64,000 nucleotides of DNA, from assembly GCA_964016885.1 (NCBI GenBank), contig OZ024743.1, forward strand, positions 229,214,001 through 229,278,000. The letters are read 5' to 3'. This DNA comes from Eledone cirrhosa (lineage: Eukaryota). The notes under the pieces are model-generated. The model was not told the origin of the DNA and did not search any database. It saw only the letters and a program-made list of their open reading frames with translations. Both the position numbers and the translations under genes were made by a program. This document shows, piece by piece, positions 22,761 to 32,020 of this stretch. The number at the start of each line of letters is the position of its first letter. Position 1 is the first letter of the stretch.

Positions 22761-22798
<38 letters not shown>

Positions 22799-23313
22799 AC
22801 TCAAGGTAAACATTTATGCAATTCAATTCAAGCACTCAACGTACTTATTCCACATAGGAGTGACGGAGTAAATATCGAATAAGGAAAAGCGAAGTAGTTT
22901 CAGATGTTCAAGTCCTTTAATAATAATGCTGTGATATATATTTCAATGGCGACAGTGGCCACACTGTTCCGTGCACCAGTTTCTTTTTGGTTTTGTTGTG
23001 ATGGAAATTCTAACTATGCACCTGCCTAACTACTACCTTTCATACTGTAATTTACCCTTCGTTCTACTGTACGGTACTATCGTTCAGTATGTAGATAATA
23101 TATCTGTAACATTAACACCCCTTTCAAAACTTCTTACTTAAACATCTCCCTACGTAGTATAGTATAGGTGCACATATTTTTTTACTCACTTCAGTCTAGA
23201 TTCTCACTTGTAAATTTTTTTTTATTTTTAATTTTTGATTTCTGATTTTCGATTTTTGATTTTTAGTTTTAATTTCCAACTCTCATTCATAATTTCCACT
23301 GTGAAACCATAAT

Positions 23314-23494
23314 TGTTTCTACTTTTGGCACAAGGCCAGCAATTACCCAGTGTATTACTGGTACTTTATTTTATCGACCCCGTAAGGATGAAAGGCAAAG
23401 TCAACCTCGGCGGGATTTGAACTCAGAATGGCAAGGGCCGTAACTCTATGCGTCAAAGCATGGCGTCCGACCCTCTACCGATACTGCCAATCCA
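23314..23494 (-). mobile_element. Young SINE (Meta/MESC-like core) with 13-bp TSD
   Basis: TSD GTGAAACCATAAT at 23301-23313 and 23495-23507. Confidence 0.92.
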
Positions 23495-23902
23495 GTGAAA
23501 CCATAATACCTAGAATTAAGTATATTTTCTCTTAGAGGTTGATGGTCAATTATACTGTCCATGCTTAATGTGGGGTGGTATTGAGACCTATTGATACTCA
23601 CACTCTCCCAACCCCACTGGCTTTCGGCTGACTGCCACTGACAGGGTGGCTAGCAGTAAGCTATATATTACAGGCCTGAATATGTCATTGTTTGGTTGAG
23701 AGGGGGAACTGCCTAGGCGAATTTCGTTGAACTCTGCGGTAGCTAATGGTCAACTTCCTTCGGACCTGCATCTGTGCAGACCGGTGGGGGTGAATTGGTA
23801 CTCACAAGGGAACGGATGAAGAACCCAGGAGCACACACTTCGTCCGTTCCCATGTCGATTCAATTTGGATTGCCTCGGAAACATAACTTTATTATGTAAC
23901 AA

Positions 23903-23976
23903 GCTATCTGATGATGTCGTGGAACTGGTGCACGGAACAGTGTGGCTACTGTCGCCATTGAAATATATATCACAGC
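23903..23976 (+). ncRNA. Type I hammerhead ribozyme-like motif with long stem II (partly degenerate)
   Basis: GCTAT-CTGATGA(23908-23914)-[45 nt, TGTCG..CGCCA base]-GAAA(23960-23963)-TATATA-TC-ACAGC. Palindromic minimal stem III; stem I pairs 4/5. Confidence 0.6.
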
Positions 23977-23994
23977 ATTATTATTAAAGGACTT

Positions 23995-24167
23995 CAGTAT
24001 CGGTAGAGGGTCGGACGCCATGCTTTGACGCATAGAGTTACGGCCCTTGCCATTCTGAGTTCAAATCCCGCCGAGGTTAACTTTGCCTTTCATCCTTATG
24101 GGGTCGATAAAATAAAGTACCAGTAATACACTGGGTAATTGCTGGCCTTGTGCCAAAAGTAGAAACA
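23995..24167 (+). mobile_element. Young SINE (Meta/MESC-like core) with up to 18-bp TSD
   Basis: ATTATTATTAAAGGACTT at 23977-23994 and 24168-24185; only 2 differences seen from the inverted copy at 23314-23494. Confidence 0.92.
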
Positions 24168-25208
24168 ATTATTATTAAAGGACTTGAACATCTGAAACTA
24201 CTTCGTTTTTCCTTATTCTATATATAGATATATACACACATGCGATAGTCTTCTAAAGTTTTTGCCTTTGAAATTTCACTCAGAAGGCATTGGTCAACCC
24301 AAGGTGATAGTAGAAAATACTTGCCTAAGGTGCTATACAGTGGAAATGAACGTGAAACCTCATGGTTGTGAACTGAACTTCTTAACTATAAGGCCATGCC
24401 ATATAGATATAAATAAAGTTATCTGAGGAGTTTATTGACAATAAGATCGAAAAATGGGGAAGAAAAATGACAATAAATCATAAAAGTACCAAAGAAACTG
24501 GTTTTCTTCTTTCTGAACAGCTAAGAGAAAATCTGAACTTGTATGTTTTCTTGTAGAAACCAGCAGCCAAACAAGTGAACCATGCCATATCATATGAAGA
24601 AAAAGATATTGAATAAGAAACGGTATGATTAATTATCTAGAGGTTCATTTTGTTACAACAGAGAGTAGAGTCAATAATGCATCATCACCATGACAACAGT
24701 TACATTGTAACTACTATAACCAACTGAAATAGAGAATCTATTATTATTATTATTATGGACACCAACAGCACAGATATTTACTTCTCTCTCTCTCTACCTC
24801 TCCCCCAACAATGTTGTCTATACAAGAAGGTAATTGTATTTAGAATAAGAAAAATGACATCTGTAAACAATGAGATGTACAGTTAGTGAATTCAAGACAA
24901 ACTAGAGTTGGTAGGGAGTGGAGGCTATGAGGTAGTGAGGAAAACTAACGAAGACAGACCAGAGAGAAAAGACTGAACAGAGCAATAGAGATGTATGACC
25001 CCCACCACCTACTTTCCAGAAGACAGAAAAACTGAAGGGAAGATATATAAGAAGATAAAATGAAATGAAAAAATGTAAAAAGAAGAGAAAAAGTGAATGT
25101 AAGAAGAGGAAAAGAATAAAAAACAGAAATGTAAAGAAAAAAATAAGAGGAAATGTGAAAGGATTACGATAACAGGAAGTGAGATAATGTAGATGGCATA
25201 GATTACAT

Positions 25209-25466
25209 CAGTGGGTCTCAACCTTTTCATTACTAAGGACCCTTTTAATTTTAATGAATTTGTCTATGGTCCCCTAATAACTTCACTCCTACATGACTAT
25301 GTAGCAAAAATAATAATTGAAACAAAATGAGAAATATTTATATTTAGAGAAGAAGCTATACCTAATAGTGTGTGTATATTGCTTTTCACAAGTTATTTGA
25401 AATGTTGAACTTAGCTTACAAACCCCATCAGTTTTACTTTTACAGATCCCAGGTTGGGAACTGCTG
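25209..25466. mobile_element. hAT (Charlie-type) MITE
   Basis: Imperfect TIRs CAGTGGGTCTCAACCT / AGGTTGGGAACTGCTG; TSD decayed. Confidence 0.7.
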
Positions 25467-25918
25467 TGTTAGAGCACCACAGGGTTAGAAAAGGAGTGTT
25501 GAATATGGCTGATAAACTAAGTAGAGAGTAAAAAGAGAGAAAGAGACGGATAATTATTTTCAAGGCTTTTTCTTTATTGAGCTTGTACTCATCAATATTA
25601 TGCATAAACATGTTCAAAGTGATTATGTCTAAAAAATCTTATTCTTGGTTCTTCACTTATATAAAATGCAAAACAAGGCCACACAGACCAAAAGATTTTT
25701 TTCTAAACAGAATTATTTAGATCCTCTCAGAACAAGCGATTTGGGAACCTACTCAATAATTCCTTTATTTTCTTTTAATTCTGAGTATGTTTAGGCACTA
25801 TCTTGATTTAGTTGATCATATCAACCCCCAAAATTTATTTTCCTCAAGTTGTGTACTCTTTTTGTCGAACTTCTAAGTTATGAGACATAAACAAAGACTC
25901 AAATAGAAGCATGCACAC

Positions 25919-26302
25919 GTTGTCTACAAATGTAAGGTTGTAACACCCACGTCCCGTAGGGCCTACATAGGGTTAACCGCCAATAGTTTCAAGCAGCGTC
26001 TTTACATGCATACCCATTCTTTTCGTTACCCTCTAAGAAGGAATATGACGTCACTTTCAGCTTATATCTGGAGTCTAAAAGACAACCACACCCAATATAA
26101 GTTACACTGGGAGATCCTAGCTGGGTCTAGATCGTATAACGGAAATAAAAGACCATGTAACCTCTGCGCCGCCGAGGCCCTGGAAATACTCTACGCTACA
26201 GACCACATCTTAAACAAAAAATCTGAGGCAATTTCGGCTTGTAAACATAAATTGCACAAAACTTTCCTGTATTACAGCCCCACGTTATACCCTAACGGAT
26301 AG
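25919..26302 (+). pseudogene. GIY-YIG endonuclease domain of a Penelope-like retroelement (5'-truncated, frame open)
   Basis: The frame extends upstream of the listed ORF: VVYKCKVVTPTSRRAYIGLTANSFKQRLYMH..TSLSAYIWSLKD..WEIL..CNLCAAE..LNKKSE..CKH. It has VVY/YIG, catalytic R, E and N, plus CxxC and CxH motifs. Confidence 0.88.
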
Positions 26303-26884
26303 CACGATCTATACGTGGATATTTTACGTCTTGATGTGGGAGCTAAGTATATGTTTTGTTTATTCCTTTACTTATTTGCATAGGTAAGTATATATTACCC
26401 GTATGTTTTGTGAAGGTATGTATACCTTCTCGTACGTATATTTGACTGTTATAGCGTATAATTTTTACATATTCTGGAATTTAGGGTTTGGCTATGTGTA
26501 TACGGGAGTTTTGCGTCCGCGTGAGTGTGCTGGTTCGTACGTATGGTGGGTGTGTGTATATGTGTACTTCTTGTTTTAGTTGACTTACGTCTCCGAACAT
26601 TCGTGTATTTATATGTAGGTATGCGTGTGCGCTTGTTATATACGTATTTATTTACTTATATACGTTTATATAATTATTTATTTATTTGTACACAAGCATA
26701 CACACACACACATATTTATATGTGCGTGGTTTTGTATACCCATGGTAAGGTTTTGCGTATGCTTGTGTATGTACGTATCTGTTTGCATGTATGTATTTAT
26801 TTGTTTCTATTACTTCTGTATTGTATTTATTTACTTTGTTCTTAACTCTGTAGCGGAGATTCATTTGGTCTCCTAGTTGGAATT

Positions 26885-27139
26885 TTAGTCTACGATTTCT
26901 GCTATACCATTTACATGGTTTTGTCTTTGCGTGCTATTGTTCTCCACGCTCCACATATGACTTATTATCTTCGTTTTTTCGTTCATTGCCAGAGAACGTC
27001 TCTATGCACCACCTAAGAGAACATTAGTCTACGACCTCTTTTTACCATAAACGTGGTTTTGTCTTTGCGCGTAATTGTTTTTCACCGCTCCTATTAATGA
27101 CGTATTATTCGTTTTTTCCCGTTCTTTGCCAGCGAACGT
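26885..27139 (+). repeat. Diverged tandem duplication of a ~115-bp unit (26885-26999 and 27024-27139)
   Basis: Both units run TTAGTCTACGA..TACCAT..TGGTTTTGTCTTTGCG..ATGAC.TATTAT..CGTTC.TTGCCAG.GAACGT. Confidence 0.85.
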
Positions 27140-27213
27140 TACCACGAACCAAAGTATCGTCTTCCTGTCTTCCTCCGGTTGCAACGTTTTTTGAAATATC
27201 CAGTTCTGCGTTT

Positions 27214-27289
27214 ACAGATTGACTTTGTTAGTTTCAGAAGATCCCGTTAAGGGTGAAAGCAGCGATTCTTTGCTTAAACTTTAATCTGT
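27214..27289 (+). ncRNA. Type I hammerhead ribozyme with variant core (CAGAAGA) and bulged stem I
   Basis: ACAGATTGA/TTAATCTGT (9 bp), bulge CTTTGTT, AGTTT/AAACT (5 bp); core CAGAAGA 27235-27241; stem II CCC-GTTAA-GGG; GAAA 27255-27258; stem III AGCAG/TTGCT; triplet CUU. Confidence 0.72.
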
Positions 27290-27291
27290 TA

Positions 27292-27297
<6 letters not shown>

Positions 27298-27346
<49 letters not shown>
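27298..27346. repeat. (TA)n microsatellite separating two Penelope-like elements
   Basis: Direct inspection. Confidence 0.95.
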
Positions 27347-27350
<4 letters not shown>

Positions 27351-27468
27351 TTGTTAAACAATATTCTGTCAAAGAATGAGTGTTACAGCAGATTGGAAGC
27401 ACTCAACCAAAAAATAATTTTCAGGAGTTATTAATATTAAAATATAAGTATTAATAAAATAGATGATC

Positions 27469-27533
27469 AATTACATTTTATTATACATATTTCGGATGTA
27501 CGACAGTACGTCCTCATCAGACAAAATATAATT
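27469..27533 (-). ncRNA. Canonical minimal type I hammerhead ribozyme (inverted copy)
   Basis: Reverse complement reads AATTATATTTTGT-CTGATGA-GGACGTAC-TGTC-GTACATCC-GAAA-TATGTA-TA-ATAAAATGTAATT. Confidence 0.88.
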
Positions 27534-28419
27534 ATACATGACATACCCTGAGATGTTAAATGGTTAAGATTTAAACAAGGTAGTGATTAACCCGATAGAA
27601 ATTTTTTACTTATATCCTATTTATGAGAAAATGCGAAAACGTAATAAATTCATTAGAGAATGTGTGAGTAATAAAAAACGTTGCATACTGTAACTGTTTT
27701 ACCCACCCAGTTATACATATGTATATATTTATCCTTAACATCCTTCAATATATTATCTTATTTTATTTTTATCTTCGTCGTTATTATTTACCTCAAACAT
27801 ACTGGCTCATTAATATATACCTATATACATAATAGTTATTTAAATATTTATAACAATAAGTACTTCAAAAGCTTTACATACCTAATATGTTGGTATATTT
27901 GTTAAAGTTTGAATTTAGGTAAATAATCAACAGTATAATATTTCATTCTTTATGTGCCAGCTAAATCCTTTAAATGTTACTCTCAAAATTCAGAAGTTTA
28001 GAAATGATAACACACTTATCGAATTTATATAAATAATATATAAATAACTAGCAAATAATCCTGAAATCTGGAGTCTTCACCCTAATATTATAAATAAAAT
28101 ATTTTCAAATCTAACCGTTTAACTTTCGAAAAAAAAACCCCACACTTTATTTTTGCCTCTTTATAAATCGTTTTCCAGTGGCTATCACTGGCTGTTTTGA
28201 TTCATGAGACGTTTTCCTAGATATATCGTAGTATCATACACTTTAACATTTTAGAACAGTTACAGTATGCAACATTTTTTATTACTCACACATTCTCTAA
28301 TGAATTTATTACGTTTTCGCATTTTCTCATAAATAGGATATAAGTAAAATTTTCTATCGGGTTAATCACTACTTTGTTTAAATCTTAACCGTTTAACATC
28401 TCAGGGTATGTCATGTATC

Positions 28420-28482
28420 ATTATATTTTGTCTGATGAGGACGTACTGTCGTACATCCGAAATATGTATAATAAAATGTAAT
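28420..28482 (+). ncRNA. Canonical minimal type I hammerhead ribozyme
   Basis: Stem I ATTATATTTTGT/ATAAAATGTAAT (12 bp including 2 GU); CTGATGA 28432-28438; stem II GGACGTAC/GTACATCC (7/8 paired) with TGTC loop; GAAA 28459-28462; 2-bp stem III with ATGT loop; AUA triplet, predicted cut after 28470. Confidence 0.9.
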
Positions 28483-28542
28483 TGATCAAAAAAACATCTA
28501 TTTTATTAATACTTATATTTTAATATATATATATATATATAT

Positions 28543-28687
28543 ATGGGCTTCTGCAGTTTTTGTGCATCAAATTCCACTCACAAGGCTTTGGTCAACATGC
28601 TGTTCAATAGAAGACATTTGCTGCAGAGCACAACTGAACTGATGTGGTTGTGAAGCAAACTCCTTAACCACACAGCCACGCCTGCAT
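28543..28687 (-). mobile_element. 5' half of an older SINE whose 3' half lies at about 25770-25913 (split by elements 2 and 3)
   Basis: ATGGGCTTCTGCAGTTT..AACTCCTTAACCACACAGCC matches 18624-18770, while 25790-25895 resembles 18460-18575 of the uninterrupted copy. Confidence 0.6.
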
Positions 28688-29513
28688 CTTTGAGTATGAT
28701 CTGAGGCAAAATGTGTAGCATATATCAAACTTCCTTCTCCTTTTCATAAGTATTTGAAACCTCTTAATTTACTTTAACTCTCTGACAACAGAATTTATAG
28801 TTCCATTAAGATGAAGACCAAAGAGTACATGCTGCCAGCAGCTGTGGTATCGAAAGATTTTTAAAAAAACCTCCCAAAAGAGAAATTACAAATAGTCAAA
28901 ACCTTGTATAACTCAAACAGACTAAAAGGGATAAAAGCAAAAAGTTAAAAAAATAGAAAATAAATAAGTTAGGAGACTTTTACATAACCCAAAATATGAA
29001 AAGGAATAATGACTTGTGCTGCACACATAAAACACAAAGTATGCAGACAGAAGCAGACAAATATTTGAAATATATGTTACAAATACACACACACACACAT
29101 TGACCTGGCCATATACAACACACCCTCAGTAATTGATTAGTGGATAGCTCTGTCATCACCACCTAAGTGATATTAGATTACAACACTATACATTATTGGC
29201 ATCAGAATATCATTAGAAGAAGTCTAATCTGTGATGGAGGGAAAGGGATCAAGAGCAGAGAAAAGTGTCCCCAAAAGGATGATAAGGTTGTCAACATAAT
29301 TCAATAAGGCATGGTGCAAGAGCAGAGGAAACAGGTTCAATGCTAGCTGGCTGTGAAGATCTCACTTTACTCAACTGTCAGTTAGCTGTTAGTGATGTAG
29401 TGTCCAATGTCATAAAACAACAAATGACCTTAATGAAATTATCAAGAAATTAAGAAGCAAACAACCAATGTGATAATAATATTAATAACAAATATAGTAA
29501 TAATAATAATAAT

Positions 29514-29855
29514 TCGACATGAGAGTGCAAGAGAAGGAGAGGGAGAAAATTAACCGATACCAGGACTTAAAGTGGGAGGTAAAAAGGATTTGGAACTGCC
29601 ATGAAGTCAAAGTGGTCCCGATTGTCATAGGCACACTAGGTACTATCTCAAAGAGTTTCCAGGGATGGTTAAAGAAAATTGGCCCCGCCCCGCTTTTTGG
29701 AACACTTCAAAAGGCATGCTTGCTGGGATCAGCAAGAACCCTCCGATATGTCCTGAATATCTGAGGCTGCAGGTAGTGGCTTGATATTCATTTCAACAAA
29801 CTTTCCAGTTAACCAACATCAATGACCGAGACTCAAAGAACAATAATAATAATAA
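29514..29855 (+). mobile_element. 5'-truncated Dong/R4-clade LINE (restriction-like endonuclease C-terminus plus 3' UTR) in (TAA)n
   Basis: ORF 29519-29764: KEREKINRYQDLKWEVKRIW..VVPIVIGTLGTI..LQKACLLGSARTLRYVL. (TAA)n at 29498-29513 and (AAT)n at 29842-29855. Confidence 0.88.
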
Positions 29856-31502: not shown

Positions 31503-32020
31503 CAGTATGTGTAAAAAATCCTTTATCCAAAATTCCCAAACCCAGAAGTTTTTCTAGTACTGATATGTCATTACACAAATGGAAAATTTCACAAGGGACT
31601 ACATTTATATAAGACTCCATTTAGTGTATATGTAATTCCTATTAAAACTACCTGAAGTGTGTATATAATTTATATAAACTGCCTTTAGACTATATGCAAT
31701 TTATATAAAACTACATTTAGCATATATGTAATTCATATAAAAACACCTTCAGAATATATGTAATTTACATAAGTCTACCTTTAGCATATATTTAATTCAT
31801 ATAAAACTACATCCAGTGGATATGTCATTTATATAAGACTACATCGGTGTAGACAAATAAGCTGTACTATGAAAAATGGATATTATTTTAAAACAGGGGT
31901 TTCATCCTCAAGCTGACCCATTTTCTAGATGTGGTACATAAACTATACAAATATATTTCATTCAAAATCTGAAAAAAATCCAAATCTAAAACATTTCTGG
32001 TACCAAGTATTCTTAACCTA
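31503..32020. mobile_element. Degenerate Tigger/pogo-like non-autonomous DNA transposon
   Basis: Ends ATCCTTTATCCAAAATTCCCAAACCCAGAA and AAAATCTGAAAAAAATCCAAATCTAAAACATTTCTGGTACCAAGTATT resemble Tigger4/Zombi subterminal repeats. Confidence 0.5.
31605..31845. repeat. ~32-bp minisatellite, about 7 diverged units
   Basis: Consensus approximately ATATAAAACTACCTTTAGCATATATGTAATTC. Confidence 0.85.

Follow-up and report, generated by a model that had tools for sequence, protein, structure and literature searches.

The locus probably records three independent insertions into TA repeats, all three stopping a few bases 5′ of a conserved bulged hairpin, the likely docking site of the reverse transcriptase (RT) and determinant of where the copy starts, with two of the elements, E2 and E3, being 5′-truncated copies of autonomous Penelope-like elements (PLEs) of the Hydra clade and the third, E1, a 1.31-kb non-coding passenger. 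The elements lie in a 64-kb window, the whole stretch of DNA analysed, close to the positions given for them in an earlier note on this sequence (E1, 22803–24218; E2, 25917–27297; E3, 27346–28526; Table 1). As that note had observed, their bodies lack DNA similarity, and cross-family blastn matches are limited to the TA-rich end and to two short ORF stretches, the latter between the full-length E2 and E3 references. The elements are multi-copy PLEs, as it had proposed. All three are present in high copy in the genome, each family has a different hammerhead, and in all three the pseudo-LTRs (pLTRs) occur as partial tandems with inverted 5′ copies and an optional tail. The claim that every element sits beside (TA)n holds for the arrays left of E1, between E2 and E3 and right of E3 (the last with approximate limits), but TA is lacking at the 5′ end of E2, and on its right E1 adjoins just a short impure TA run.

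Table 1. Features of the three elements (positions in the window; dot, no strand).
Feature	Position	Strand	Details
(TA)n target left of E1	22761..22799	.	
E1 inverted arm	22803..22981	-	family 3′ end with long tail, truncated hammerhead; 97% to monomer positions 1138–1308
E1 bulged hairpin A	22831..22869	-	inside inverted-arm tail
E1 body	22979..24218	+	5′-truncated copy of 1.31-kb non-coding, non-autonomous PLE unit; ends at proximal terminus
Presumed SINE insertion in E1	23309..23494	-	12-nt target-site duplication
E1 hammerhead	23903..23976	+	type I, long branched stem II, palindromic stem III; predicted cut after 23971 (AUC)
Second presumed SINE insertion in E1	23995..24172	+	99% identical to first; 18-nt duplication
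E2	25917..27297	+	5′-truncated copy of young autonomous Hydra-clade PLE
E2 endonuclease remnant	25917..26302	+	C-terminal, GIY-YIG type (CxxC before E, CxH after N)
E2 3′ UTR direct repeats	26885..27139	+	two, diverged, ~139 nt
E2 hammerhead	27230..27280	+	type I fold, U4A core (CAGAAGA), U·U at stem II base, 5-bp non-palindromic stem III; predicted cut after 27275 (CUU)
(TA)25	27297..27346	.	common to E2 3′ end and E3 left end
E3 inverted arm	27346..27701	-	complete hammerhead and long tail
E3 bulged hairpin A	27398..27428	-	
E3 hammerhead, inverted copy	27470..27532	-	complete
E3 body	27704..28526	+	last ~820 nt of ~1.7-kb 3′ UTR of second autonomous Hydra-clade PLE family
E3 hammerhead	28420..28482	+	type I, canonical core, 12-bp stem I, near-palindromic stem III; predicted cut after 28470 (AUA)
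(TA)n right of E3	28521..28544	.	

The preference for TA repeats extends beyond this locus. Among the terminating sites of the three families, 52/67, 72/87 and 25/29 are flanked by (TA)n, compared with a background of 4.3% (391/9115). The alignment-based end table misplaces ~28 E2 sites, since TA runs are matched there to a TATA stretch inside the element, and the E2 ends were instead read by eye. Each family follows the order hammerhead, proximal end, hairpin A, distal end and hairpin B, followed by an ATG and the RT-endonuclease ORF in E2 and E3 or by the non-coding body in E1. In all three families the hairpin, RCUC-stem-UY-GAGY-RCU, follows each of the two alternative ends on the 3′ side at a distance of a few bases, and its pattern has 27,539 matches genome-wide against 223 for the reversed pattern. 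In the octopus families the upper stem often extends just 1–2 bp beyond a fixed C-G pair, and E2 uses its hairpin A although this is degenerate, with a long insert, a UC bulge and a CCU tail.

Hydra loci from marine metagenomes carry the same motif, with 100 sense matches in 54 of 77 loci, five antisense matches and none for the reversed pattern. For a 2-nt bulge, the interior pairs form in 45, 42, 38 and 29 of 48 hairpins versus 34, 21, 19 and 19 after shuffling, while bulges of 0, 1 or 3 give no excess of pairing. Two-sided changes number 18, a count reached in 0 of 500 shuffles; as the loci are related, these shuffle values are not probabilities. A pairing-based search placed 73 of 74 sense matches outside the ORF, and in all five contigs with both a TA-flanked end and read-through, the hairpin or a variant begins 7–13 nt after the end. 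The strict motif is absent from 23 of the 77 loci, many of them short contigs and some with variants.

From its position and conservation, the hairpin is likely a docking signal for reverse transcription. The element would be transcribed through its own pLTR, and the protein would bind a hairpin, nick (TA)n and prime reverse transcription ~1–11 nt 5′ of the hairpin. A start at hairpin A would yield the short end and one at hairpin B the tailed end, so that two-armed insertions would combine one short and one long end. We think it improbable that these same elements use the hairpin for something other than initiation, be it, at the DNA level, an internal promoter or a site recognised by the endonuclease, or else an element before the ATG that affects translation or stability; the ends would then adjoin it simply because an internal TA of the element pairs there with the TA target. 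Such a role would suit the location of hairpin B ~35–55 nt before the ATG in the autonomous families, the near-invariant sequence of the lower stem and the location of most ends at a TA or ATA inside the element, and DNA cleavage by the Drosophila virilis endonuclease needs tail sequence (cited in Frangieh et al. 2024, PMC11167929). It fits poorly with two hairpin copies that each stand beside one end and are both kept by non-coding E1, with an upper stem that covaries through all four Watson-Crick types and allows G-U, and with the other TA dinucleotides of the AT-rich UTRs, which are unused as ends.

A broader form of the docking model has, in our estimate, slightly less than an even chance of being right. 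Hydra-clade PLEs from coral and sea cucumber to octopus would use one portable bulged hairpin of 20–30 nt as a ruler, which docks the telomerase-related RT and lets cDNA start a few bases upstream; its duplication would make the PLE tail, license non-coding riders such as E1 and render the hammerhead dispensable, as in E2. For another PLE clade, Frangieh et al. (2024, PMC11167929) describe two internal start sites that require the RNA 3′ of them, and hammerhead mutants had no effect on insertion in vitro.

A structure scan of the 64 kb detected three hammerheads, with cores at +27235, +28432 and −27520, compared with a mean of 0.13 and a maximum of one in 30 Markov-shuffled windows. The plus-strand hammerhead that the earlier note had placed near each right end was recovered for E2 and E3, whereas the E1 copy is damaged and lies 250 nt from the end because an insertion that we take to be a SINE sits behind it. 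The window E1 copy fails the scan because of a G>A change in stem I and further changes in stem II; the family form is intact. The canonical core (CUGANGA..GAAA..UH with stems I–III) is present in the E3 copies and in the E1 family, with stem I broken in window E1, and is absent from E2, where the proposed fold stands but the core reads CAGAAGA rather than CUGANGA. Besides the plus-strand copy previously noted, E3 carries another complete hammerhead, on its minus strand. In single-sequence folding of the window copies, the active hammerhead fold is not the lowest-energy structure, which is usual for hammerhead motifs. The Rfam search that had been suggested as a check found none of the hammerheads and no match at gathering score in the window; in nine loci it gave just low-complexity miRNA-type noise and a tRNA-like match, with E values up to 5 and none on a hammerhead or hairpin. 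We dropped the idea that U·U at the base of stem II is unusual, since many of the published Hydra hammerheads have it (Craig et al. 2021, PMC8557442).

The altered core of E2 is fixed in its family, with 20,697 U4A copies versus 99 with U4. The U4 copies are no commoner than C4 and G4 copies together (124), and many arise at inversion junctions; there is therefore no sign of a U4 master copy, and a U4 master subfamily was dropped. Because the family comprises more than 20,000 hammerhead copies with the U4A core, self-cleavage is probably dispensable for insertion, and E2 is a young, very successful family with an altered ribozyme core that may not cut. The U4A hammerhead might instead still be active, assisted by protein or slow yet sufficient, in which case E2 would be silent on whether cutting is dispensable; we take this seriously while leaning against it. 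Of 30 E2 copies, 29 retain the three stems and the rest of the core, a natural U4C viroid variant is infectious despite low in vitro activity (Perreault 2011), the Anolis PLE hammerhead cuts only with protein (Frangieh et al. 2024) and one of 66 metagenome Hydra hammerheads has U4G. Set against this are the retention of U4 in the other 65, the low activity of CUGA-turn mutants in a saturation screen (Roberts 2023) and the missing trace of a U4 master.

Coding sequence in the window is confined, as previously noted, to the GIY-YIG-type remnant in E2, but the families tell a different story from the proposed one autonomous element and two retrozymes: E1 is indeed non-autonomous, whereas E2 and E3 are 5′-truncated copies of autonomous families. 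The E2 family has a stop-free RT-endonuclease frame of 672 aa (L125) with YRDD at 309 and VYK..YIG at 547. E3 is not non-coding as a family, since its body continues colinearly into an RT-endonuclease ORF, within the 1.5 kb covered, at 13 of 30 loci; ORF pieces show about 38–45% identity, with read-through from pLTR to ATG (L131, L137). Both families have a single ORF with an RT followed by a C-terminal GIY-YIG-type endonuclease, DKT in place of DKG (by eye in E3 DNA) and RLRWR as a near match to the N-terminal RWK motif, with R for K. The linkers, CNCRNRADC in E2 and CNCRNKTNC in E3, fit CxCX5C, and the endonuclease motifs are CDLC..E and CKH in E2 and CPLC..E and CLH in E3. Pfam gave no match for the E2 window endonuclease or for the full RT-endonuclease of either family; 375 homologues were found, and E2 and E3 probably belong to the Hydra clade, their similarity to the published Hydra alignment being judged by eye.

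E1 is the sole non-autonomous family of the three. Loci selected by its 5′ linker run from hairpin B and the linker straight into the non-coding body in 30 of 30 cases, so that the unit is closed, with no PLE-protein match. Among 30 loci selected by the hammerhead tag, none has a joined ORF and two have PLE-protein matches outside the unit. Head-to-tail arrays have units of 1300–1321 nt, as at C1:130.88 Mb, where one strand has five units and the opposite strand three, and the longest ATG-started frame of an array unit is 46 aa. Most copies are single or partial tandems, and in the window copy the two presumed SINEs with their target-site duplications account for ~360 nt. Because E1 keeps both hairpins and the hammerhead but has no ORF, its copying likely depends on an enzyme of the Hydra clade acting in trans. 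It seems very improbable that E1 represents just the 3′ part of some autonomous family with unsampled full copies. E3 did prove to be such a part, the searches scored the best 40 candidates and the 90 E1 loci are a small part of the family; no autonomous parent was found among those 90, and the closed unit, the 1.31-kb array repeats and a best match to 120 Hydra-type proteins at a non-significant E = 0.008, on the minus strand, argue for a complete non-coding element. A relative 75% identical to E1 (L152/L302) is a bare 3′ end.

We doubt that E1 is a bona fide retrozyme, in which paired hammerheads cut array transcripts into 1.31-kb monomers, these circularise and the circles template insertion. 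Its non-coding unit and tandem hammerhead units are retrozyme traits (E3 lacks the former), five of six array units shown have an intact hammerhead, stem II contains a compensatory change (G-C in 12 and A-U in 9 of 24) and stem III is a dimer-type palindrome (Cervera and de la Pena 2014, PMC4209133). The copies, however, end at hairpin-adjacent sites ~55 and ~130 nt past the cut site rather than at it, autonomous PLEs also make partial tandems and inversions, and the unit is far longer than described animal retrozymes (150–450 nt; 51–972 nt). For the integration step, the retrozyme reading is compatible with the docking explanation.

The locus itself is not a special cluster, an idea that we dropped: hammerheads of other families occur ~1 per 10 kb of flank (54 in 523 kb, in 43 of 147 loci; one of the 54 is a mis-assigned E1 copy and overlapping loci are unmerged). 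A search of viral contigs gave no relative. The value of the locus is as a matched test set, with near-intact E2 ORFs, a covarying hairpin, a passenger that keeps it and a natural core-mutant ribozyme, the U4A core being a natural test of the importance of cutting. The choice of internal starts by PLEs, the reason for their hammerheads and the way in which animal retrozymes borrow PLE enzymes are called open in the literature. If sufficient, the hairpin would be a compact tag steering any RNA to an enzyme with TA repeats as its insertion target. Searches of the open-access literature turned up no account of the hairpin, of a PLE hammerhead with U4A or of a Hydra family from octopus that is non-autonomous, and the bulged hairpin at the ends and the fixed U4A core of E2 are additions to published knowledge. 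PLE hammerhead variants were reportedly treated by Lunse, Weinberg and Breaker in 2017, which may bear on both.

That the system is new, or specific to cephalopods as the earlier note's reading would have it, is not supported, since hammerhead-bearing Hydra-clade PLEs that prefer (TA)n are already described, among them an Octopus bimaculoides member, Hydra-1_Obim (Craig et al. 2021). E2 and E3 share with that clade the single RT-endonuclease ORF, DKT, CxCX5C and CxxC/CxH motifs, (TA)n targets, a pLTR with tail, the inverted 5′ copy and type I hammerheads with U after A9 and U before G12. They differ in RWR for RWK, in longer 3′ UTRs (1.0 and 1.7 kb) and in being separate families from Hydra-1_Obim, with hammerheads and N-termini that differ by eye; the Hydra cores given there are solely CUGA, unlike the U4A of E2. 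The hairpin can be seen by eye in the coral and sea cucumber consensus sequences of that study, and as variants in copepod and octopus, but the words 'hairpin' and 'stem-loop' are absent from its main text, and its account of the clade names no non-autonomous family, whereas E1 is one. The minimal metazoan PLE hammerheads of Cervera and de la Pena (2014) are likewise type I in pLTRs, with a palindromic stem III as in E1 and E3; E2 departs from them in its 5-bp non-palindromic stem III and U4A, and E1 in a 44-nt branched stem II.

PAc, a Poseidon PLE of Anolis, has two internal starts that account for its tail, as proposed here, but these lie inside the ORF at an AC-rich stem-loop, with no conserved binding motif defined in that report (Frangieh et al. 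2024), in contrast to the duplicated, covarying UTR hairpin described here. Chlamys PLEs such as MRC1 (Craig et al. 2021) resemble E1 as non-coding passengers with pLTRs and head-to-tail insertions; they belong to another clade and kingdom and have 3′ sequence in common with a known autonomous family, whereas what E1 shares with E2 and E3 is limited to the hairpins and the hammerhead architecture. Animal non-LTR retrozymes (Cervera and de la Pena 2020, PMC7229834; Li, Clavereau and Pollet, bioRxiv 10.64898/2026.07.22.740005) are, like E1, non-coding with a type I hammerhead and occur as monomers and multimers, and Li, Clavereau and Pollet propose a dependence on PLE machinery that would apply to E1 alike. 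E1 differs in its 1.31-kb unit, beyond the 1000-nt period at which their search ended, and in being known from DNA alone and mostly as dispersed two-armed insertions; a probable cis signal that it shares with the helper family is identified here.

Three elements (E1, E2 and E3, from left to right) occupy 22.8–28.5 kb of the window (G000:C4:229214001-229278000 within the 3.0-Gb assembly), with unrelated DNA between them. A structure-descriptor scan returned three hammerhead folds, compared with a mean of 0.13 per shuffled window. The earlier note had given each element a hammerhead; the elements are real, and the hammerhead of the E1 copy is damaged. The predicted cut sites fall after 23971 (E1), 27275 (E2) and 28470 (E3). 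An Rfam check of the window for hammerheads gave no match, and Pfam and Rfam together missed all of these elements, recognising neither their proteins nor their hammerheads.

Features located in the window
Feature	Position	Strand	Remark
Hairpin, E1 tail copy	22831-22869		
E1 hammerhead	23903-23976		recognisable, yet damaged in this copy
SINE behind stem I of the E1 hammerhead	23995-24172		
Pair of 139-nt repeats	26885-27139		~79% alike, fixed within the E2 3′ UTR
Hammerhead fold (descriptor scan)	27235	+	
Hairpin, E3 tail copy	27398-27428		
Hammerhead fold (descriptor scan)	27520	-	
Hammerhead fold (descriptor scan)	28432	+	
83-aa frame	29513-29764		presumably similar to the restriction-like endonuclease region found at the C terminus in a non-LTR retrotransposon; Pfam search of the frame, nothing
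Minisatellite	31603-31844		32-nt units, 96-nt higher-order period

The E2 copy in the window breaks off within the endonuclease, and longer copies carry a 672-aa reverse transcriptase (RT)-endonuclease frame without stops (locus L125). This frame contains DKT, YRDD, CxCX5C, a GIY-YIG-type motif, CxxC and CxH, which are features of the Hydra clade of Penelope-like elements (PLEs) as described by Craig et al. 2021 (PMC8557442). E3 had seemed non-coding because its window copy covers just the final 820 nt of a 1.7-kb 3′ UTR; its body runs on into an RT-endonuclease ORF in 13 of 30 loci in the match table, and one locus (L137) shows the pseudo-LTR (pLTR), the ATG and the start of the ORF. Assigned by their motifs, E2 and E3 both appear to be autonomous Hydra-clade PLEs, and the supposed E3 retrozyme is an ordinary truncated copy of one. 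In the E3 ORF (L131, L026), the RT thumb is separated from the linker by an (AAT/AAC)n-type Asn/Lys-rich tract, which is expanded in some copies.

The second supposed retrozyme, E1, retained its status as a non-coding, non-autonomous element. Where an E1 copy has a 5′ pLTR, a short linker connects the tail directly to the body, so that a unit of 1.31 kb is closed (L062). All 30 linker-selected loci run into the body and none of them holds a PLE-protein match, and no ORF is joined to the E1 hammerhead tag in 30 tag-selected loci. Mirror-image E1 arrays at C1:130.88 Mb (L220 and L221, G000:C1:130880500-130895500) consist of repeats of 1300–1321 nt with a longest ATG-started frame of 46 aa. In stem II of the E1 hammerhead, two subfamilies differ by a compensatory change (G-C/A-U), which is one inherited event counted repeatedly. 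Judged from these sequences, E1 behaves as a non-autonomous PLE and fits the DNA-level definition of a retrozyme, length excepted; a search for its parent family found none among 90 E1 loci. Within the arrays, identity is 99.85% between units 1 and 3 and 99.0% between units 2 and 4, but only ~94.5% between neighbours; therefore, a dimer was duplicated. Two insertions with target-site duplications, which we take to be SINEs, make up ~360 nt of E1 in the window; they are 99% identical, inverted and 508 nt apart. Insertion of the same SINE recurs at 13 of 78 distinct sites, always into an ATT-repeat that directly follows stem I of the hammerhead in E1.

All three elements are multi-copy. First-look genome candidates numbered 2619, 2816 and 2375 for E1, E2 and E3, and exact hammerhead tags numbered 1,488, 20,697 and 2,055 genome-wide (reversed patterns, 0), counts that represent arms rather than insertions and undercount older families. 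Identity to the window copy is 98–99% for the best 40 E2 copies and 92–96% for E1 and E3 copies, which makes E2 the youngest of the three. The proposed preference for (TA)n also held, with such flanks at 52/67, 72/87 and 25/29 terminating sites (E1, E2 and E3, respectively) against a background of 4.3%. The elements nest because TA arrays are their common target, and E2 was probably inserted into the TA array adjoining E3. The flanks of 147 fetched loci contained 54 other-family hammerheads in 523 kb; a cluster of hammerhead elements is ordinary for this genome. At least 15 further hammerhead families, differing in stems II and III, were seen in the flanks of L002–L219, and many share the hairpin described below.

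Each of the three families has two alternative 3′ ends, one short and one with an 80–100-nt tail. In read-through copies, ~1–11 nt past each end, lies a bulged hairpin composed of RCUC, a variable stem-loop, a 2-nt bulge, GAGY and RCU. The pattern occurs 27,539 times genome-wide (reversed, 223) and is present in many families, typically ~57 and ~145 nt past the hammerhead cut site. Its first pair in 179 matches is A-U (135), G-C (39), G-U (3) or A-C (2).

For a test outside this genome, 38 homologues were aligned with E2 and 77 loci were fetched from marine metagenomes. A sequence-only definition of the hairpin gave 100 sense matches in 54 of the 77 loci, against 5 antisense matches and none for the reversed pattern. 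Of the 75 interiors that differed from one another, 48 were long enough for a pairing test; with a 2-nt bulge, 45, 42, 38 and 29 of the 48 paired at the respective interior positions (shuffled: 34, 21, 19 and 19), and bulges of 0, 1 or 3 nt gave no such pairing in these 48. An ungapped alignment of 15 equal-length hairpins contained 18 two-sided changes, a count reached by 0 of 500 shuffles, although the metagenome loci are related to each other, which inflates the hairpin statistics. A single position occupied by four Watson–Crick pair types in distant families would be hard to obtain without structure. The metagenome hairpins lie ~40–55 and 105–112 nt past the cut site, 73 of 74 found in sense by a pairing-based search are outside the ORF, and in 5/5 informative contigs a TA-flanked end lies 7–13 nt ahead of the hairpin or a variant. 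Visual inspection of published consensus sequences also showed the hairpin for coral and sea cucumber, and variants of it for copepod and octopus. In a lizard PLE, copying begins at two internal sites, which define the tail, and RNA 3′ of these start sites is required (Frangieh et al. 2024, PMC11167929). The simplest reading is that the hairpin is a candidate Hydra-clade binding site; searches of the open-access literature found no description of it.

The E2 hammerhead carries A in place of U at core position 4 (U4A) in the 20,697 exact matches, against 99 with U and 124 with C or G, and the CAGAAGA core is present in 29 of 30 full copies; U4A is fixed in the family. By comparison, U4 is kept in 65 of 66 metagenome Hydra hammerheads and in every hammerhead of the Hydra list of Craig et al. 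2021 (PMC8557442). The sole non-CUGA core among the 66 is a U4G (CGGAAGA) at L285:2308-2345. Among the 99 E2 hammerhead copies with U4, many (L143–L158) arise at inversion junctions within the core, where the base is rewritten by template switching. Changes in the CUGA turn are reported to strongly reduce hammerhead activity (Perreault 2011; Roberts 2023), and the E2 ribozyme is predicted to be weak or dead. A U4C viroid variant is still viable (Perreault 2011), and the stems of the E2 hammerhead are still conserved; to residual or protein-assisted activity of this hammerhead we give somewhat less than an even chance. With a weak or dead ribozyme as the favoured prediction, E2, the youngest and most abundant of the three, would thus have spread with an impaired hammerhead, in line with in vitro results for the lizard PLE, whose insertion did not require cutting (Frangieh et al. 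2024, PMC11167929).

The observation of the earlier note is real, with these corrections, but its cephalopod system belongs to a kind already described: Craig et al. 2021 (PMC8557442) list a Hydra family from Octopus that bears a hammerhead and prefers (TA)n. What is new here, and renders two open questions directly testable, is a hairpin that marks both ends clade-wide, the E1 passenger of 1.31 kb in which this hairpin is retained, and the family with the U4A core.
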